The translations under genes and the position numbers were made by a program. From Promethearchaeota archaeon (GTDB lineage Archaea > Asgardarchaeota > Lokiarchaeia > Sigyniarchaeales > SOKP01): a stretch of DNA of 50,167 bases. The notes beneath the pieces are model-generated. The model was not told where the DNA came from and made no database searches. It worked only from the letters and a program-made list of their open reading frames with translations. Positions 20,218-39,038 of this stretch are shown here, in pieces. The stretch lies in assembly GCA_048940645.1 (NCBI GenBank), contig JBHLOI010000024.1, positions 1 through 50,167 on the forward strand. Direction: 5' to 3'. Numbering within the stretch: the stretch's first letter is position 1; each line of letters starts with the position of its first letter.

Positions 20218-22581
20218 TTGACTTCATTAAATGTCAAATTAGAGAATTTTGAAGAAGAATGTATAAAAAGTATTGATTCAATATTCGATGCTTATTTTTT
20301 ACTCTCTAAAAAGAATATAATATTGGATTGTGGGATTAAAGATAGATTGCTTAATTCATATTTCGGATGGAAAAGTCTTCAAGGAAAAGATCTCATCAAG
20401 TTCTTCGAGACTCAAATTCAACAAGAGAGTAATAAAAGATTACTTCAAAAAATTTCAGAAAAAAAGCCTCAAATATTTGAAGTTAGTATAAAGGTAAATT
20501 ATCAAACTGGTTATTACAATGTATTTATTTTTATTTTAGCTAATGATCAAATGCTCATTAATTTTCAGAACATAGACAAACAGAAGAAAATTGAATTTGA
20601 ATTGGCTGAAGAGAGAAATACATTAAAAAATATAATCGAACTAAACCCTTATGCTATTGAAATAAAGGATGCTGAAGGTCGACACGTTAGTGCTAATAAA
20701 GCCTTCATTGATATGTTTAAATCTGTGGCTCCACCTGAATACTCTATCTTTACAGATCCTCATCTTAAAAAGAGAGGACTACTGGATAAAATTCTAAAAC
20801 TAAAGGATGGTGAGGTTGTAAAGATGGGAGAACATTGGTATGATGTTCGTGACTCTGCAAGAGAAGCTGGTCTTAATTTAGAGGATTATCCGAGCTCACC
20901 AATATGCCATAAAGCTGTTGCTTTTCCAATATTCGATAGAGAGGGCAAAATAAAGAATTACGTTATGATGCATGAAGACATTACTGCATATAAAAAAGCT
21001 GAGCAAAAGTTACGTGAGAGTGAAGAAAGATTTCGCTCTCTGGTTGAAACTACTAGTGATTGGATATGGGAAGTGGATGTGAACTCTGTTTTTACTTATG
21101 TAAGTCCAAAAGTTAGAGAATTATTAGGGTATGACCCAAAAGAAATCATTGGCAAAACTCCTTTTGATTTAATGCCTTTAGAGGAAGCAGAACGTGTGCA
21201 AAAAGTTTTTAAAACCATACTTGATTCCGATAAATCTTTTAAAATATTTGATAATACGAATCTCCATAAGGATGGAAGTTTAAAGATTCTTGAAACGAGT
21301 GGAGTACCAATTTTTGATGAAGATGGTAAACTTATAGGCTATCGTGGCATCAATCGTGACATTACTAAGCGCAAAAAGGCAGAAAAGAAATTAAAAGAGT
21401 CTGAAGAAATGTATCGGAATTTATTTAATAGTACACCCTATGCAATTTGGCTTGTAGATTTACAAGGAAAAATTATTGATTGTAATGAACCAATGGATAA
21501 ATTCATGTCAATATTTAAATACACCGATTTAATAGGAAAATCTTTCAGAGATGTACTTAAAATGTTTGCACGTGAAGGAGATCCCAGATTTGAAAATTTA
21601 GAAAAACGTTTGAAAGATAGATTTAAGATATTATTAAAAAAAGGCTATATCAAACCAATCGAATTTGAAATTTTTAGGGGTGATGGTAAAACATTTTGGA
21701 TAACTTTAGAATCTTCCTTTGTCAATATAGGCAAAAAAAGACTTATTCAAACATTTATTAAGGATATTACAGAGAAAAAGTTAGCTGAAATTGAATTAGA
21801 GGATTTAAGGAAAGAGTTAGAAACTAGAGTAAAAGAGAGAACAATTAAGCTGGAAAATTCGGAAAAAAAGTATCGGAAGGCATATAACAGGGCAAATTGT
21901 TATAAAGGACTGTTTACTCACGATATATCTAATATGTTTCACACTATTGGAAATTCTATAGAATTATGTGATACATTATTGAAAGAGGGAGTGAAAAATA
22001 GCGATATGATTGAATATTTTGATGTAATTGAACAACAAATTAATCGGGGGAAAAAGTTAATAAATAATATTAGAAATTTATCAGAAATTGAAGAATCCGA
22101 AATGCCCTTAGTGCCTACAGAGGTTTTTAATAAGTTGAAAAACGCTATCCAATTTGTTAAGGTAAATTTCCAGAAACGAGATATTAATTTCAATATTGTA
22201 TCTGATTTAGATGAGATTTACGTACTTTCTAATGATTTATTACTTGATGTCTTTGAAAATATTCTTATTAACTCTGTACTTTACAATAAAAATGAATCTA
22301 TAAAGATTGAAATTAATATTTCAAGATTGAAAGAAAATGAGAAATCATATATTAAATTAGAATTTAAAGACAATGGTATTGGTATAAATGATAATAGAAA
22401 AAGACTCATATTCATGGAGAATTACAAGAAAAGAACAGGATCTAAAGGTATGGGGCTTGGACTTTCTCTTGTCGCTAAACTTTTAGACCTTTGTCAAGGA
22501 AAAATCTGGGTTGAGGATAGAGTTAAAGGAGATTATACTCAAGGAAGTAATTTTGTTATTTTAATACCAGAAGCAGAATAA
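20218..22581 (+). CDS. Multi-PAS sensor histidine kinase
   Basis: At least 3 PAS/PAC repeats (DIT.RK.AE..L.ESE), H-box FTHDISN, N-box ENILINS, DNGIGI, GMGLGL. Confidence 0.93.
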   Translation: MTSLNVKLENFEEECIKSIDSIFDAYFLLSKKNIILDCGIKDRLLNSYFGWKSLQGKDLIKFFETQIQQESNKRLLQKISEKKPQIFEVSIKVNYQTGYYNVFIFILANDQMLINFQNIDKQKKIEFELAEERNTLKNIIELNPYAIEIKDAEGRHVSANKAFIDMFKSVAPPEYSIFTDPHLKKRGLLDKILKLKDGEVVKMGEHWYDVRDSAREAGLNLEDYPSSPICHKAVAFPIFDREGKIKNYVMMHEDITAYKKAEQKLRESEERFRSLVETTSDWIWEVDVNSVFTYVSPKVRELLGYDPKEIIGKTPFDLMPLEEAERVQKVFKTILDSDKSFKIFDNTNLHKDGSLKILETSGVPIFDEDGKLIGYRGINRDITKRKKAEKKLKESEEMYRNLFNSTPYAIWLVDLQGKIIDCNEPMDKFMSIFKYTDLIGKSFRDVLKMFAREGDPRFENLEKRLKDRFKILLKKGYIKPIEFEIFRGDGKTFWITLESSFVNIGKKRLIQTFIKDITEKKLAEIELEDLRKELETRVKERTIKLENSEKKYRKAYNRANCYKGLFTHDISNMFHTIGNSIELCDTLLKEGVKNSDMIEYFDVIEQQINRGKKLINNIRNLSEIEESEMPLVPTEVFNKLKNAIQFVKVNFQKRDINFNIVSDLDEIYVLSNDLLLDVFENILINSVLYNKNESIKIEINISRLKENEKSYIKLEFKDNGIGINDNRKRLIFMENYKKRTGSKGMGLGLSLVAKLLDLCQGKIWVEDRVKGDYTQGSNFVILIPEAE

Positions 22582-27790: not shown

Positions 27791-28339
27791 TCAAACATCT
27801 AAATCATTATCAACACCGATCATAAGACAACTAATAATATAAAAACAATCATTTACATGATTTCCTGTTTTAGCTGAGGTTTCTATATAGCGCAAGTTGA
27901 AGTCTTTTGCAAAATCATTTACTTCTTCGATAGAAACGGCTCTTTGGTCAGTTAAATCGCTTTTATTACCAACTAATAAAAGAGGGATTTCAATATTTAT
28001 ATTTTTTCGCACTTCTTCTATCCATTTGAAAAGATGCTCAAAACTAGCATAATTTGTTAAGTCAAATACTAAAATTGCTCCAAGAGCACCTCGATAATAC
28101 ATAGGTCTTATAGCACCGAATCGTTCTTCTCCACCTGTGTCCCATACTTGTAACTTGCACCTAATAACTCCCTCATCTGTATCTATGGATATAGTTTTAA
28201 CGTTAAAATCTACTCCAATGGTCATTTTATAATCTTCAGTAAAAATCCCTTTTGAAAATCTGATAGTTAAAGCTGTTTTACCTACCCCACCATCTCCTAT
28301 AACAATCGTTTTAAAAAGATACTCATACTCCTGAGCCAT
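27791..28339 (-). CDS. Rab-like small GTPase
   Basis: GDGGVGKT, TIGVDF, WDTGG, YYRGA, NKSD, ETSAK. Confidence 0.93.
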   Translation of the reverse strand: MAQEYEYLFKTIVIGDGGVGKTALTIRFSKGIFTEDYKMTIGVDFNVKTISIDTDEGVIRCKLQVWDTGGEERFGAIRPMYYRGALGAILVFDLTNYASFEHLFKWIEEVRKNINIEIPLLLVGNKSDLTDQRAVSIEEVNDFAKDFNLRYIETSAKTGNHVNDCFYIISCLMIGVDNDLDV

Positions 28340-32706: not shown

Positions 32707-34797
32707 TTATTTTCTCTTCCTTAAAGGATATTCCCAAATACTCAAACCTGCTATGAATATTAAACTCACGGGAAGAACATGAATCCAAGGGATAGTCGAT
32801 TTTACTGATTGACTTTCTAAATAAATTTTAATTTCATGAGAGCTATGCGTGTATTCAAAATGAATTAAAATACCTATTTCTCCAACACTCAAAGTAAAAG
32901 GGATCTGTATTCCATCAATGGATACTCCGTATGGGCTAAGTAAAACAGCTTTGGGAATTAAAACATCACAATATCCTGTCGTTCCAGCTCGACCATAAAT
33001 CTCAAAGCTAATTTCATTCCGCGATTCATTAAACACAAGCCCAAAATCGGAGGAATTAGATTTTACAGTTATTGTGTAAGGGGCATCGTCTTTTATTATT
33101 AAATAATTAGTAGTAGTTAAGATTAAAGGCTCAATTTGGAACATCTTTGCATCAACCCAACTTTCACACGTTCTCTGAAGTGCCCAAATATAGTCTCCAT
33201 CCCAAGCAATTGCCCATGTCCCATCAGCCACTGGATAAATTTGCCCTACAACTTGCCAATCATGAGAATATTTAGTTAGATTACCTCCTCCGGTAACTGC
33301 CCAGAAATGTGAGCCTGTCCAAACTAAACCTCCGCTAATACCTTCTCCAGGAACTTGAATTTCTTCAATAATTGCCCCAGTTTTATTTATTTTCCTTACT
33401 AAAGCACCCCCCCTACTAGGAATATAGAGAAAGTCTCCAACACAAGTTAATCCTTGTATACCACCTTCATCTTTTTTTGGTAGATCAAATGAATCATTTA
33501 CTACTATTGCATTCCCAGAAATTAAAAACTTGAAAATTTTGAGTTGACTATGATCATAAGCAAAAAAGTACTCTCCATCCCATGCTAAACCTCGGGCATT
33601 TTCAATAACATCATTTTGAATTTCAATATAATCTCCTGTATCTGGATTCATTCTTATAAAGTTTAAAGCACTCCCTATCTGAGCATTCCAAAAATCAAAT
33701 CGCCAAATATAGCCCATAGCATGCTCTAATGCCCACCCAAAACTTAATCCCAATCCAATTCTTTTTACAACCCTCCTTGTTTCATCTACTGAATCATATA
33801 CATATGGATATTGATCCTCTGAGTCACCCGGAACATAATCTAATGAATAGTTTTTAACATCTTGATAATCAAATACCGGAATCGGTAATGTCATGGTCCC
33901 ATTATCATTATTGATTAGGGTTACATTTGAATTTGGAGTTATAGTAATATGTGGAGGAGATAATGACGGATCAAAAATGTTTTCTTCTATAGTCGCATTT
34001 GTGTGAGCAGCAATCGACACAATATCACCACTATAATTAGTAAAGTAATTTCGTTTAAGATAAACTTCCGAATTTTCTGAATGAAACGCCACAGTTCCAT
34101 TTTTAAATATATTCCTCCTAATAGTAGCATTATTAAACTGTTCTAAAGCAATCTCATGATACCCATTTCCGTATAATGTATTGTTTACATAATCCACATT
34201 GGAATATTCTGCGTACAGTCCTTCTGTATTGACCCACCTCACTATTGAATTCGCAACTGTAGATTCAGAGTAAAATTGGACAATTCCTACGAGTCCATAT
34301 TCTATAATAGTATAATTAAATGTAGAATCTGTAGTACCATTCATATAGATGCCATCCCAATCCCCGTTGATTGGCGGTTCAGCATCAGAAGTAAACCAAA
34401 TCTGCTGATCTGGTGCTCCTAGCGCGTTTATAGTTCCAGCTATAAAAAGGCTTAACCGAGCATCAGGAATTTTGTACCCCCTATAATGCTTAAATTTAAC
34501 AATTGTTCCGGGTAATATAGTAAGTGTTGCATTCTTAGAGACTGTAATGCTTCGAGTTACAAGAATATTTCCACTCCATGTCTCATCACTATTAATTGTT
34601 TCATTTTTTATCTGCATTGGGGGATTACTCGATTTTATCTGCGGTTTAAATTCTTTTTTTTCTATAATGCCATTAATCTTATTAGGATCACTATTAGAAA
34701 AGTCACCAAGAAAAATACTAGCAAAAATCAAGCCAAAAAATAAGAGAGGCAATATAGGGATAAACAGTTTATTTGATTTTAACATTCTCAACCCCAT
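32707..34797 (-). CDS. Large secreted/surface protein: right-handed beta-helix, beta-propeller-like repeats and C-terminal anchor
   Basis: LTILPGTIVKF, G.DWDGI, Asn-rich beta-helix repeats; GLAWDG/GLVWTG/AIAWDG repeats; C-terminal TM + RKRK. Confidence 0.75.
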   Translation of the reverse strand: MGLRMLKSNKLFIPILPLLFFGLIFASIFLGDFSNSDPNKINGIIEKKEFKPQIKSSNPPMQIKNETINSDETWSGNILVTRSITVSKNATLTILPGTIVKFKHYRGYKIPDARLSLFIAGTINALGAPDQQIWFTSDAEPPINGDWDGIYMNGTTDSTFNYTIIEYGLVGIVQFYSESTVANSIVRWVNTEGLYAEYSNVDYVNNTLYGNGYHEIALEQFNNATIRRNIFKNGTVAFHSENSEVYLKRNYFTNYSGDIVSIAAHTNATIEENIFDPSLSPPHITITPNSNVTLINNDNGTMTLPIPVFDYQDVKNYSLDYVPGDSEDQYPYVYDSVDETRRVVKRIGLGLSFGWALEHAMGYIWRFDFWNAQIGSALNFIRMNPDTGDYIEIQNDVIENARGLAWDGEYFFAYDHSQLKIFKFLISGNAIVVNDSFDLPKKDEGGIQGLTCVGDFLYIPSRGGALVRKINKTGAIIEEIQVPGEGISGGLVWTGSHFWAVTGGGNLTKYSHDWQVVGQIYPVADGTWAIAWDGDYIWALQRTCESWVDAKMFQIEPLILTTTNYLIIKDDAPYTITVKSNSSDFGLVFNESRNEISFEIYGRAGTTGYCDVLIPKAVLLSPYGVSIDGIQIPFTLSVGEIGILIHFEYTHSSHEIKIYLESQSVKSTIPWIHVLPVSLIFIAGLSIWEYPLRKRK

Positions 34798-35073: not shown

Positions 35074-38000
35074 TTGAGAATTTTAGTATTAAGCCACCGG
35101 AATCTGTTTTTTCCTCCATATATATTTTTAAAAGTTCCTGAAACAATTGAAAGGGATGATCTTAAACAGGTTCCCACTTTAATAGAGCTTTATGAAGATG
35201 GTTTTTTTAAACATATGTTTGGAACTTTTAAAACAGCTAATTTGTTGTTTGATATTCCGAGTAAGTATTCAAGAACGAAAAAGGAGCGCCTTTTAATTTC
35301 AATAATAGTTGATAATAAAAACAAAATTAACACTACTTTAGCACAAGAACTTTTAGAAGGATTTGTTGAAGAATTTAAAAAAATTAAAAAAGCCTATAAG
35401 GCTTTTTATGTGGACTCTCAATTTTATCAAGGAGATATAGGTAAGCTACAGGAAATTAGAACACTATTAGAAACATTTAATACATCTTTTCCAGAAGAAA
35501 GAGTCATATTTGAACAAAAAGAGGCAAAAGTGCTAATTTTTGGACTTTCGATGGCGGGGAAAACAACTATTATTAAGACAAGAAGAAAATCTGTATTAAA
35601 AACAATATTTCCAACCATAAATGTAGATATTTCTAGAATCTTAGTTAATAATGTATCTCTATTAACTTATGATACACCTGGACAAGTAAAATTTAAGGAA
35701 ATATGGAAACCATATCTGAAAAAACAAGACGGTTTGATTTTTGTTTTAGATGTTTCGGATAAGTTAAAATTCCCAGATGCACGTGCATTATTACATGAAA
35801 TAGTAGGAATGCCGGAGCTAAGTGAATTACCACTTCTTATTCTTTTCAATAAGATTGATTTAGAAGAACCGAATATAAATGATCTAGAAGACGATATGGG
35901 ATTAGAAAAGCTTGGAAAAATGCCAATGAAATCTTTTTTAACAAGTGGAATTAATAATATAAATATTGATGAAGCATTTAATTGGCTTTCACTTAAAATA
36001 GCCGAGAGAATTGAAACATATACCCCAAGAACAGATATTGGGATAATATTTTGTCGATGGGACGAAAATCTTGGCGTTAAAATCGAAGCAGTTCATCCTA
36101 AAGATGCTTTCGAGAATCCAGAATTGATTTCTATAAAAAGTTTTTCAATTTCGCAATATATTTTTGGAGGAGGAGAATTTAAACGTGCCTCAGTAATTTT
36201 ACCATTTCCTCATTTAAATTCAAATGCTGCAATTTATTTTGATTATGTATCTGATGAGAGTATTAGAGGGGGTTTATTACCATTATCACTAATAATTTAT
36301 TACAATGATAAGATTCCTAAGAGTATAGTTAACCAATTTAGTTATTTCATTCTTAAACAATTTGATAACATAAAAAATAATTACTTGAATAATATTCAAG
36401 TATTAGAAATTCTAAGAGAGATTCATAGTACAATAACAAATCAAATTGATTTATATAAACCATCAATTGAAGCCCTTAAAATTGCTGAATTACGTTATGA
36501 AGCTTTATTTAAGGCTGCTCGAGATGCGATTTTGATTATTGATAAAAAATCAGGAATTATAATGGATGCTAATGAACAAGCAGAGGAGTTATTTCAACTC
36601 CCTTTTGAAGATTTTATCGGATTCCATTCAAGTCAATTATTAAATGAAATTATAAATATCGATTTTAATGAAGAAATATTTGATCAGCTTAATAGTTCCT
36701 TTCCTTTAAGATTAGATGTCATTGATAATTCAGGTAATCTTATTCCAGTTGAAATTAATGTAAATGACGTACAAATGGGAGGACAGGTCTTTACTCAATA
36801 TATTATTCGAGATGTCAGTAAGAGATTAGAGGCAGAAATTAAATTAAAGAATTCTGAAATAAAATATCGTCATCTTTTTAAAGATTCACCATTTTCTATT
36901 CTTTTAATTAATCCTAATGGTTCTATAGTTGATTGTAATCCTGCATTAGAAAAGTCTTTAGGATATACAAGAGAAGAATTATTGGGGAGGCAGTTTGTGG
37001 ATCTTTCATTAATTCATCAAGATTATTTAGTAGAGGTTCTTAAGAGATTTAGAAAAGAAGAAAGGGGCAGAATTTTTCCATCATTAGAAATTCAACTTTA
37101 CCAGAAAAATGGGAATCTCATTTGGGTGAATATGCTATCTTCTTTTGTTGAAATTGGTGATGAAACTTTTTATCAAATAATTTGTCATGATGTAACAGAG
37201 CAAAAAAAAACAGAACTGGATTTAAAGAAAATTTCAAAATTAGAAGGCATTATTGCGAGAACTATTTCGAGATTTATAGGTATAAAAGATTTTAATCAAG
37301 CAATTTATGATTCTCTTAGAGAGATTGGGGAATTAGTTAATGCTAATCGAGCTTCTATTTACATTTTTAATAATAGTTATAATTTTATGAAGAGAAATTA
37401 TATTTGGTATGGTAAATTAACTTATCCACAAATTGATTTGCCTCAATTTATATCAATTAACAATTTTCCATGGGTAATTGAGAAATTAAAAACATCTGAT
37501 TATTTTTGCATTAATGATGTTGCTATGCTTCCTAAACAAGCAATAAACTTTAAATATTTTCTTGAAATGCAAAAAGTTGAAAATATTTTAGTATTTGCAA
37601 TAAAAATTAATGATTTATTAGAAGGAATCATATGTTTTGATAATCTATCGGAAAAAGATTATTGGAAAGAAGAAAATCTTGAAACGTTAGGAATTTTCTC
37701 AGATATACTAAAAAATGCGATATTGCGTAAATTAGCTGAAAACAACTTACGCATAAGCGAAGAATCTTTCCATGAAGAATTTGATAGAGAATACTTCTAT
37801 AAAGAACTATTCATAAATGATATAAATAATATAATAAATAGCCTTCAATCATCATTAGACAAATATATCAAGCAAAACAGTCAATTTATATCAAAATCTT
37901 TAAGAGAATTATTAGATAATGTAAAAAGCGAATGTATTAACGCCCAACTTTTAATATATACAATACAAAAATTAACAGTACTTAATGAAACAAAAATTGC

Positions 38001-38445
38001 AATTGTAAAAGTAGATTTAAATAATGTAATTAATGACGTTATAGATTTTATAACTAGTACATACACCAACAAAAAAATTAATATAATTGTTGAAAATCCC
38101 AGTAAGGAGTTATACGTGAAGGCTGATAAGTTTCTAATAGATGTTTTAGTTAATATACTCATTAGTTCGATAAGATATAGTAAAAAACCCTCAATTGAAT
38201 TGAAGATTATTATCTATAGAAGTAAAGAGAATAATTTAAATTATGTTAAAATAAAATTCATCGATTATAAAAAAGAAATCTTAAATATAGAGAAAGATAT
38301 GATTTTCAAAAAGGAGAGAGAAAAAGATAGTAAAATTAAAGAAATAATTTTAGGATTTCTTCTAGTTGAACGAATCTTAAATAATTATAAAGGAAAAATA
38401 TGGGTAGAAGGAAATAATTTTGTTATCTTAATACCTGAAGCTTAG
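35074..38445 (+). CDS. Fusion: uDENN/longin-like, Arf-like GTPase, uDENN/longin-like, PAS, PAS, GAF, degenerate histidine kinase
   Basis: GLSMAGKT, FPTI, DTPGQ, NKID; FCRWDENLGVKIEAVHP; two PAS/PAC; GAF (NANRASIYIF...GIICFD...W); LFINDINN where an H-box is expected. Confidence 0.85.
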   Translation: MRILVLSHRNLFFPPYIFLKVPETIERDDLKQVPTLIELYEDGFFKHMFGTFKTANLLFDIPSKYSRTKKERLLISIIVDNKNKINTTLAQELLEGFVEEFKKIKKAYKAFYVDSQFYQGDIGKLQEIRTLLETFNTSFPEERVIFEQKEAKVLIFGLSMAGKTTIIKTRRKSVLKTIFPTINVDISRILVNNVSLLTYDTPGQVKFKEIWKPYLKKQDGLIFVLDVSDKLKFPDARALLHEIVGMPELSELPLLILFNKIDLEEPNINDLEDDMGLEKLGKMPMKSFLTSGINNINIDEAFNWLSLKIAERIETYTPRTDIGIIFCRWDENLGVKIEAVHPKDAFENPELISIKSFSISQYIFGGGEFKRASVILPFPHLNSNAAIYFDYVSDESIRGGLLPLSLIIYYNDKIPKSIVNQFSYFILKQFDNIKNNYLNNIQVLEILREIHSTITNQIDLYKPSIEALKIAELRYEALFKAARDAILIIDKKSGIIMDANEQAEELFQLPFEDFIGFHSSQLLNEIINIDFNEEIFDQLNSSFPLRLDVIDNSGNLIPVEINVNDVQMGGQVFTQYIIRDVSKRLEAEIKLKNSEIKYRHLFKDSPFSILLINPNGSIVDCNPALEKSLGYTREELLGRQFVDLSLIHQDYLVEVLKRFRKEERGRIFPSLEIQLYQKNGNLIWVNMLSSFVEIGDETFYQIICHDVTEQKKTELDLKKISKLEGIIARTISRFIGIKDFNQAIYDSLREIGELVNANRASIYIFNNSYNFMKRNYIWYGKLTYPQIDLPQFISINNFPWVIEKLKTSDYFCINDVAMLPKQAINFKYFLEMQKVENILVFAIKINDLLEGIICFDNLSEKDYWKEENLETLGIFSDILKNAILRKLAENNLRISEESFHEEFDREYFYKELFINDINNIINSLQSSLDKYIKQNSQFISKSLRELLDNVKSECINAQLLIYTIQKLTVLNETKIAIVKVDLNNVINDVIDFITSTYTNKKINIIVENPSKELYVKADKFLIDVLVNILISSIRYSKKPSIELKIIIYRSKENNLNYVKIKFIDYKKEILNIEKDMIFKKEREKDSKIKEIILGFLLVERILNNYKGKIWVEGNNFVILIPEA

Positions 38446-38525: not shown

Positions 38526-39038
38526 TTAATTTGATAATTCGTGTATTAGGTTGCATATTTTTTGTGGGTTTCTTGTAGAGAAAAGAAATGGTCTCCCAGA
38601 TTGAAAGGTTAATTTCACAGCCTCTCCGAAATCTGTGTTATAAGCCCATGAGCCATCTAACCCGAATCGAATTCCTACTCCACCATAAGTCCTAAAATGT
38701 GCTTTAGTTATATCACAACTGGTTATTTTGTTTAGAGGAATCCTTTTATGATTAAATATTCCATAGGACACTTTAAGTTGATTTCTGGTTAAATTAATTT
38801 TTAGTCCTCTGTAGTTCCAATAAAAAAGAAAAATGAGTAGACTTACAACACCAAAAATGATACCTACAAACCAAAGTTCTTCTGGATTGATAAGAGGAAT
38901 GATTATACCGAGAGAGAGAATTAACAAAAATGCAAACAGGATTACAGCCTTAACAAATTTTCCCGCAGGAACCCATTCTGCATATACTATATCATCATGA
39001 TTTTGGATATTATTTTCTTTAATTATATTAATCACCAA
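38526..39038 (-). CDS. Two-TM membrane protein with bacterial PH-like domain
   Basis: 2 TM segments then RIPLNKI..YGGVGIR...AVKL......FSTRNP. Confidence 0.7.
   Translation of the reverse strand: MVINIIKENNIQNHDDIVYAEWVPAGKFVKAVILFAFLLILSLGIIIPLINPEELWFVGIIFGVVSLLIFLFYWNYRGLKINLTRNQLKVSYGIFNHKRIPLNKITSCDITKAHFRTYGGVGIRFGLDGSWAYNTDFGEAVKLTFQSGRPFLFSTRNPQKICNLIHELSN

Follow-up and report, generated by a model that had tools for sequence, protein, structure and literature searches.

An Asgard archaeal protein that joins an Arf-like GTPase and two predicted longin domains to PAS sensors and an apparently dead histidine kinase

A 50,167-nucleotide stretch of DNA from a Promethearchaeota archaeon of the class Lokiarchaeia (assembly GCA_048940645.1, contig JBHLOI010000024.1, positions 1 to 50,167), hereafter called the window, carries on its forward strand a long open frame whose product combines a small GTPase with the parts of a prokaryotic sensor. 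An earlier note, made from the sequence alone, had read this gene as an Arf-like GTPase flanked by longin- or uDENN-like segments and fused to two PAS domains, a GAF domain and a histidine kinase that appeared to be dead. Here we follow up this reading with profile searches, AlphaFold2 (AF2) models, structural comparison and an analysis of relatives in other genomes. The product consists of a predicted longin domain, an Arf-like G domain, a second predicted longin domain (the middle longin), two PAS domains, a GAF-like domain and the remains of a kinase core, the latter comprising a dimerization and histidine phosphotransfer (DHp) domain and a catalytic and ATP-binding (CA) domain (Table 1). 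From sequence, predicted structure and analogy we propose, with moderate confidence, that the protein is a sensor-coupled Arf-related GTPase with a built-in longin-pair regulator resembling a GTPase-activating protein (GAP), and that the dead kinase serves it as a scaffold.

Table 1. Features of the longin-GTPase-longin gene and of the kinase used for comparison. Coordinates are positions in the window; amino acids (aa) are numbered along the encoded protein.
Feature	Position	Strand	Basis or remark
Whole gene	35074..38445	+	one open frame, 1123 aa and stop
N-terminal longin domain (predicted), aa 1-146	35074..35511	+	AF2, Foldseek, VIA-align
R67, strand 4-5 loop of N-terminal longin, candidate arginine finger	35272..35274	+	
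Arf-like G domain, aa 147-312, without N-terminal amphipathic helix	35512..36009	+	Pfam, PDB phmmer
P-loop GLSMAGKT, aa 157-164	35542..35565	+	
Switch II DTPGQ, aa 200-204	35671..35685	+	catalytic Gln204 kept in window copy
NKID guanine-specificity motif, aa 259-262	35848..35859	+	
Middle longin domain (predicted), aa 318-445	36025..36408	+	AF2, Foldseek, VIA-align
W329-D330-E-N-L-G334, strand 1 end/strand 2 start of middle longin	36058..36075	+	
R398-G399-G400, strand 4-5 loop of middle longin	36265..36273	+	
Long helix joining middle longin to PAS1, aa 446-472	36409..36489	+	AF2 model residues 129-158, continuous helix
PAS domain 1, about aa 474-585	36490..36843	+	Pfam, NCBIfam
PAS domain 2, about aa 598-711	36859..37218	+	PAS_9 aa 607-709, PAS aa 598-705, TIGR00229 121 bits
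GAF-like domain, weak in window copy	37294..37722	+	Pfam GAF 18.9 bits
DHp-like helical domain, dead H-box	37756..38103	+	LFINDINN at 37807-37830
CA (HATPase_c-like) domain	38104..38442	+	without N-box Asn, G1, G2
Intact PAS histidine kinase, paralogue used for comparison	20218..22581	+	

The G domain is of the Arf family. It matches the Pfam model Arf (PF00025) at aa 147-307 with an E-value of 4e-34 and 117.9 bits (cut-off 22.3), as against 49.9 bits for Ras, and the Pfam model Gtr1_RagA gave no match on the protein. By phmmer, its best sequence matches in the PDB are Arf1 (E 7e-24) and Sar1 (E 3.5e-21). The motifs G1, G3 and G4 (GLSMAGKT, DTPGQ and NKID) are intact and include the catalytic Gln, as the earlier note had reported. 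The N-terminal amphipathic helix of Arf proteins is not present: a 146-aa longin domain precedes the G domain, and the match begins at position 11 of the Arf model. Tabulation of the motifs in 120 family sequences shows that conservation extends throughout to the P-loop, NKxD and the Thr of switch I, but not to the switch-II Gln. The subclade of the window protein (9 rows) keeps this Gln. In the sister clade (52 rows, among P0011-P0072) it is replaced by Lys, giving DIPGK, with the exceptions P0018 and P0022, which have Gln; His or Tyr takes its place in further lineages. Among small GTPases, a Lys here is unusual.

Each flank of the G domain was folded separately with AF2 on an alignment of 38 family members (N-terminal flank, aa 1-149; middle flank, aa 312-470). 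The N-terminal flank was modelled with a predicted local distance difference test score (pLDDT) of 93.3 and the order strand-strand-helix-strand-strand-strand-helix-helix. The middle flank (pLDDT 89.1) has the same topology, followed by a long C-terminal helix that enters PAS1. Searched with Foldseek against the PDB, both models have NPRL2, Lst4, Npr2, FLCN and the Lokiarchaeal longin 8yqg as their top matches; E-values are 2.5e-5 for the N-terminal flank with NPRL2, and 2.6e-4 and 4.5e-4 for the middle flank with NPRL2 and 8yqg. VIA-align over 48,161 chains placed 8yqg_B first for both, at Z 12.8 for the N-terminal flank, followed by FLCN (6nzd_H, 12.7), NPRL2 (8fw5_B, 12.5) and Lst4 (10.6), and at Z 15.8 for the middle flank (root-mean-square deviation 2.4, 135 residues), followed by FLCN (11.6) and Lst4 (11.5). 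FNIP2 and SMCR8/C9orf72 are also among the leading structural neighbours, the C9orf72-SMCR8 structures 7o2w and 6lt0 being matched at Z 9.4-10.9. DENND1A/B and Mon1-Ccz1 were found at Z 7.5-9.3, TRAPP and adaptins at around 8-9, and Roadblock chains at no more than 8.7. According to these models, both flanks are longin folds of the FLCN/NPRL2 kind.

Of the two folds that had been suggested for the flanks, longin is therefore borne out by the models and uDENN is not. The uDENN profile (PF03456) has no match anywhere in the genome at E<=1, no cDENN or dDENN domain is present, and DENND1A/B score under NPRL2, FLCN and Lst4. Because of this lack of any DENN-family match and this ranking, we assign the flanks to the GAP-type longin class and not to DENN. 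A Roadblock/LC7 identity was likewise considered and rejected: both models start with strands and have no N-terminal helix, and Roadblock chains reach at most Z 8.7 as against 11-16 for longins.

The relationship is one of structure. No Pfam family was found for the flanks alone or for their paralogues in the same genome. Searches of each flank against PDB sequences with phmmer gave chance matches only, and a profile built from 26 diverse middle-longin sequences matched only designed 'Pizza' proteins in the PDB. Whole-genome profile scans with NPR2 (PF06218) and Folliculin (PF11704) gave no match on the gene. The same holds for the likeness between the two flanks, which had been described as weakly similar: their resemblance lies in the predicted structures, and the sequence similarity is marginal, profile comparison with hhalign giving a non-significant E of 0.018 and a probability of 2.5%. 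Matches in the ESM Atlas were unnamed Promethearchaeota clusters of 141-196 aa with scores up to 0.91; in one cluster NPR2 is found on 19% of the members, which we treat as a lead only.

Further longins of this type are encoded in the same genome. Five paralogues of the N-type longin, of 246-386 aa, lie on contigs C117, C113, C46, C94 and C29, and the one on C29 (367 aa) precedes a G domain. Separately, a 473-aa frame on contig C94 (C94:72717-73457, minus strand) has an Arf-family match of 79.6 bits and, just N-terminal to it, matches the Pfam model Folliculin weakly (E 0.008, 17.1 bits). Judged from these matches, the frame may be a second longin-GTPase fusion, of FLCN type.

Longin sheets have the strand order 2-1-5-4-3, which brings the 1-2 and 4-5 hairpins together on one edge as neighbouring strands. 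Because of this topology, R67 and R398, which occupy the strand 4-5 loops of the N-terminal and middle longins, would sit beside the hairpin that bears the Gly-Pro (GP) or Trp-Asp motif, a placement derived from topology and not from superposition. In the middle longin, W329 is found in 117 of 118 rows, D330 in 115 and G334 in all 118; on the loop, R398 is found in 115 and G399 in 116. Distant relatives read WDExxGP at the Trp-Asp site, and the W-D-x3-G spacing is that of human C9orf72, with its W33-D34 and G38-P39 (positions according to PMC12290439). A 2025 survey of longin GAPs (PMC12290439) locates the GP motif just before strand 2, adjoining the arginine finger, and describes it as specific to FLCN, NPRL2, SMCR8 and C9orf72; in the last of these it is G38-P39 and lies next to the essential W33-D34. 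The motif is reported absent from FNIP2, NPRL3 and the longins of adaptin, TRAPP and DENND, and present in some Asgard longins. In the C9orf72-SMCR8 complex, the two longins cup ARF1 and the finger is Arg147 of SMCR8 (PMC8213707). At the corresponding site just before strand 2, the N-terminal longin of the window protein has P14-P15; 33 family rows have G-P there, as do almost all of the wider relatives. The middle longin has G334-V335, the Gly being invariant and the Pro present in distant relatives. At the R67 position, ARGG is near-universal in the wider longin-GTPase family.

The identity of the loop residues tends to vary with the state of switch II. R67 is present in all 59 family rows with a switch-II Gln or His. 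Among the 50 sequences with Lys, position 67 is Arg in 10, Lys in 23, Asn in 12, Gly in 4 and Thr in 1, and in the Tyr lineage it is Leu or Pro; both Gln rows nested in the Lys clade carry R67. This association cannot reach significance, because only three independent switch-II changes underlie it. For that reason, and since the pattern is not repeated in two-domain longin-GTPase proteins, R67 was set aside as the established finger for the protein's own G domain. The second arginine adds to the picture. In 16 distant longin-GTPase-longin representatives, R398 is kept in 11 of 11 with G[Q/H], and in 5 of 5 with a degenerate G domain it is lost while R67 is kept. Over 48 longin-GTPase-longin rows, both arginines are kept in 37 of the 38 with a switch-II G[Q/H] and in none of the 10 sampled degenerate ones. 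On a tree of these rows, possession of both arginines goes with a competent switch II in five of five independent contrasts (sign test p 0.0625, the best value attainable with five contrasts). A coupling of the loop arginines to the active site of the G domain is, on these sequence comparisons, suggestive only.

The PAS domains score above their cut-offs (PAS_9 at 100.5 bits in Pfam, TIGR00229 at 121 bits in NCBIfam). The GAF domain of the earlier reading is less secure: at aa 741-883 it reaches an E-value of 2e-3 and 18.9 bits, under the Pfam cut-off of 22.4. GAF matches are carried by the relatives P0078, P0089, P0115 and P0123.

For the kinase core, the intact PAS histidine kinase encoded elsewhere in the window provides a direct reference, with 32% identity to the tail over 241 columns. 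The loss of the phospho-acceptor His and of the G boxes, noticed earlier, is evident in this comparison. The H-box reads LFINDINN where the paralogue has LFTHDISN, placing Asn915 where the phospho-acceptor His would be; G1 reads DYKKEI against DNGIGI and G2 reads ILGFLL against GMGLGL. The N-box, too, has lost its Asn, which is Ser here (ISSIRYS against INSVLYN). HATPase_c at aa 1020-1122 scores 21.2 bits, under its Pfam cut-off of 26.4, the Pfam model HisKA gave no match on the protein, and NCBIfam kinase models align to aa 925-1113.

The fate of the kinase in relatives was followed in the same 120 family sequences, with the paralogous kinase as reference, and on a tree of 113 family rows. 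None of the 69 rows of the window clade has the His; Asn stands there instead, or else Lys, Ser or Thr. Several other lineages have Gln, Asn, Tyr or Thr, and the tree requires at least 8 changes. H, N, G1 and G2 are all kept only in forms of about 830 aa (P0101, P0106, P0110), in which HATPase_c scores 50-64 bits. By sequence, these kinases look live, and the kinase appears to decay by degrees over the wider family. Within the dead clade, mean pairwise identity (63 complete sequences and the window protein) is 75% for CA, 70-78% for the longin and PAS domains and 58-59% for GAF and DHp. Being conserved on a par with the longin and PAS domains, the dead CA domain has probably been retained for some role. 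Judged by its motifs, the kinase core of the window protein is thus catalytically dead yet conserved.

The order of events can also be read from these relatives. Since the longin-GTPase-longin core is shared by forms with an apparently live kinase and by forms with PAS domains and no kinase, the GTPase module would predate the decay of the kinase. The earlier idea that the output had been rewired from phosphotransfer to a GTPase switch finds no support here; on this reading the GTPase did not replace the kinase. From the sequences at hand, the kinase is dispensable to the longin-GTPase-longin family.

A search for the architecture in other genomes found it many times over. More than 120 protein clusters cover aa 1-470, most of them 1103-1126 aa long with identical architecture, and an unbroken fusion is seen in over 100 protein clusters and in the genomes of dozens of species. 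In a survey of 400 genomes from the phylum, orthologues that match the middle longin closely (E < 1e-40, in frames of about 1125 aa and with no stops) were confined to the window's own Lokiarchaeial family, where 71 of 134 genomes bear one, with 13 of 41 in the same genus and 38 of 54 in the sister genus. Weaker relatives, in frames of 300-360 aa and 650-700 aa, extend over the order, the class and another class. The recurrence of open orthologous frames across genomes rules out an assembly artefact as the source of the fusion.

When 1.84 billion cluster representatives were scanned with HMMER, a wider family came to light. Of its members, 43 are longin-GTPase proteins of two domains (about 310-330 aa), 16 are additional longin-GTPase-longin proteins and 26 have an N-type longin ahead of other regions. 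The tails of the 16 differ greatly: some have none (473-483 aa), some have two PAS domains (about 700-720 aa), some have CxxC...CxxC (about 630 aa), and others, reaching 2317 aa, carry long arrays of PAS or of PAS and GAF domains, to which a kinase may or may not be joined. This variety indicates that longin-GTPase-longin is a portable module, habitually coupled to PAS sensors, to which the kinase is optional. In P0118-P0122 (623-641 aa), the core is followed by a CxxC...CxxC tail of about 180 aa that is zinc-ribbon-like; no similarity was found between the tail of the roughly 630-aa relatives and longin profiles. Six proteins of 642-1915 aa (P0173, P0182, P0203, P0214, P0218, P0226), in which no G domain was detectable, likewise begin with an N-type longin, 40-49% identical to aa 1-140.

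At its own locus the gene stands alone, both adjoining genes lying on the minus strand. The upstream neighbour (32707..34797, -) is a NosD-like beta-helix protein, and the downstream neighbour (38526..39038, -) has no known family. Inspection of the neighbouring genes for operon partners found no receiver domain and no other signalling gene directly beside it. The start codon is TTG, a placement that fits the N-termini of the orthologues, which share the starting residue in M[KR]ILVLSH. A 93-aa antisense frame inside the gene (37881-38162, -) is most likely a chance open reading frame in AT-rich DNA. The host genome, of 3.83 Mb and about 30% G+C, has 83 matches to the Arf family model, three more of them within the window (27896-28324, 1112-1603 and 128-622, all on the minus strand). 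These features mark it as the genome of an Asgard archaeon, and the database names of the orthologues indicate Lokiarchaeia/Promethearchaeota.

These observations lead us to picture a soluble signalling protein, probably dimeric, whose working part would be an Arf-related GTPase held between two longins of the FLCN/NPRL2/SMCR8-C9orf72 class. The two longins would form a regulatory pocket for the GTPase, either in cis or across the dimer. An arginine would come from R67, from R398 or from both, with the switch held by the W329-D330...G334 hairpin on the pattern of C9orf72-SMCR8/ARF1. The PAS-PAS-GAF region may sense a cytoplasmic ligand or redox state and would pass the signal on to the GTPase and its longins along the long, presumably rigid helix that links them. 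The dead DHp and CA domains would be retained, in the manner of DivL, for dimerization and docking and not as a phosphodonor.

Several observations weigh against this account. The GP motifs of the window copy read P-P and G-V, and nothing at the level of sequence ties the flanks to NPR2, Folliculin or any longin in the PDB. The trait that relates arginines to switch II was defined post hoc, and its p of 0.0625 comes from only five contrasts. Moreover, 10 of the 50 Lys-clade rows keep both arginines, and the 48-row sample left these out. The two depths of the tree also disagree, shallow Lys and Tyr clades losing R67 and mostly keeping R398, and deep degenerate lineages doing the reverse. In two-domain longin-GTPase proteins the ARGG loop is kept beside clearly degenerate G domains (21 rows), which suggests that the loop does more than serve the G domain of its own chain. 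Geometry is a further concern. The termini of Ras-like folds are situated away from the switch regions, and the longins are tied to the G-domain termini by short linkers, so that action in cis may be sterically hard. A two-copy complex prediction of aa 1-472 scored 0.02 and is informative neither way.

Signal could instead flow in the conventional direction. The longin-GTPase-longin unit would then be an N-terminal input that senses nucleotide state or a partner, and the kinase core would be the output, here reduced to binding or sequestering a response regulator or another kinase without catalysis. The relatives of about 830 aa do place the core N-terminal to a kinase with a complete H, N, G1 and G2 and HATPase_c at 50-64 bits, the dead CA domain is conserved equally with the other domains, and response-regulator binding by pseudo-kinases has a precedent in DivL (PMC4211667). 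However, in many relatives the core is followed by PAS domains but no kinase, or by no tail at all. The kinase therefore cannot be the general output of the family, and no receiver-domain gene adjoins the gene. We consider this reading unlikely, although it is the strongest competitor to a sensor-coupled GTPase.

Somewhat less probable, in our judgement, is that the longins are non-catalytic structural platforms for dimerization or docking, like the C-terminal roadblocks of Rag GTPases. Their conserved Arg, Trp and Asp would then serve folding or the binding of other proteins, possibly among the 82 other Arf-model matches of the genome. The short tethers that put the longins near the G-domain termini suit this explanation, as does the retention of the ARGG loop beside dead G domains, and with 83 Arf-model matches in the genome, potential partners abound. 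Longin and roadblock GTPases of MK-D1 dimerize through those domains in published AF2 models (PMC10933270). Against it stand the WD-x3-G and RGG motifs, reported as specific to the GAP type and absent from the platform longins of TRAPP, adaptin and DENND (PMC12290439), and the arginines, both of which are kept in 37 of the 38 rows whose switch II is competent and tend to disappear elsewhere. A built-in guanine nucleotide exchange factor (GEF), as in DENN, Mon1-Ccz1 and TRAPP, strikes us as very unlikely. Most longin-containing regulators are GEFs and DENND1A/B and Mon1-Ccz1 are among the structural matches, but these rank (Z 7.5-9.3) under the GAP-class longins (Z 11-13), the domains of a DENN protein are missing (no uDENN Pfam match, no cDENN, no dDENN), and the GP and Arg motifs are reported missing from DENND and TRAPP longins (PMC12290439). 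That the gene is a decaying, functionless relic, as the vanished kinase motifs and a sister clade that also lacks the catalytic Gln might suggest, we practically dismiss, given frames of about 1125 aa free of stops in dozens of species, 58-80% mean identity in all domains and invariant G motifs.

The proposed GTPase with its built-in regulator can be set beside several known systems. The closest in plan is C9orf72-SMCR8(-WDR41) with ARF1, an ARF GAP (PMC8213707). Both combine two longins with an Arf-family GTPase, the W-D...G-P hairpin is equally spaced, and the window protein too has an arginine on a longin loop. It differs in being one polypeptide, in having neither DENN domains nor WDR41, and in reading G-V and P-P in place of GP; homology to C9orf72-SMCR8 was not detected at the level of sequence. 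The longin-pair GAPs of Rag GTPases, FLCN-FNIP2/Lst7-Lst4 and NPRL2-NPRL3 of GATOR1, provide the best structural matches of both flanks and likewise tie sensing to a small GTPase. However, the GTPase of the window protein is Arf-like and not Rag, its sensors are prokaryotic PAS and GAF domains, and the Pfam models NPR2 and Folliculin are unmatched. For the tail, the parallel is DivL of Caulobacter, a multi-PAS pseudo-histidine kinase whose signalling runs in reverse through PAS domains (PMC4211667). In both proteins PAS domains precede a DHp/CA core from which the phospho-acceptor His is missing; in DivL this core serves docking and signal relay, much as is proposed for the window protein. DivL has Tyr for His, an otherwise recognizable CA domain and no GTPase or longin, whereas the window protein is also without N, G1 and G2.

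Among Asgard archaea, GTPases fused to longin or roadblock domains have been described (PMC10933270, PMC11914678; PDB 9m28/8zla LokiRagM, 8yl2 LokiRagO and the Loki Roadblock-Longin 8yqg), 8yqg being the structure to which VIA-align matched both flanks best. Zhu et al. (PMC11914678) report longins at the N-termini of Asgard Arf proteins. The window protein differs from these in that its C-terminal flank is predicted to be a longin and not a roadblock, given the missing N-terminal helix and Roadblock scores of at most Z 8.7, and in the addition of PAS-PAS-GAF and a pseudo-kinase, an extension unmentioned in the searchable texts on these GTPases. Fusions of two-component signalling domains with NPRL2-like longins of Asgard archaea were described by Liu et al. 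(bioRxiv 10.1101/2020.10.19.343400), whose text contains no GTPase between two longins on a PAS-GAF-pseudokinase chassis. Component fusions have been described by Liu et al. (2020) and by Tran et al. (2024). Literature searches found no explicit GTPase-PAS-histidine kinase fusion in Asgard archaea, and no text describing the full longin-Arf-longin-PAS-PAS-GAF-pseudokinase protein, the graded decay of the kinase, the Gln-to-Lys clade or the WD-x3-G and RGG motifs. The parts are already in print.

The 2025 survey asks whether ArfR or Rag GTPases are the partners of Asgard longins with a GP motif (PMC12290439). The present family, in which GP-type Asgard longins are covalently joined to ArfR on both sides, would name a client. 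In its most far-reaching and quite tentative form, our proposal is of a ligand-gated Arf GTPase cycle in a single chain. PAS and GAF domains would control a longin-pair GAP that acts through the WD-x3-G hairpin and a finger from R67/R398, and ArfR would be the client of the GP-motif Asgard longins. Such a protein would be a prokaryotic counterpart of GATOR1-Rag, FLCN-Rag and C9orf72-Arf, possibly related to their ancestor; we think it improbable that all of this holds together.

The protein would combine regulator, switch and sensor in one expressible, soluble chain. Its natural variants offer ready controls, with kinases that appear live, half-dead or dead, with Gln, Lys, His or Tyr in switch II, and with or without the loop arginines. 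More generally, this family would exemplify how Asgard archaea build GTPase regulation of the eukaryotic type into prokaryotic scaffolds of PAS and two-component domains, along the lines sketched by Liu et al.

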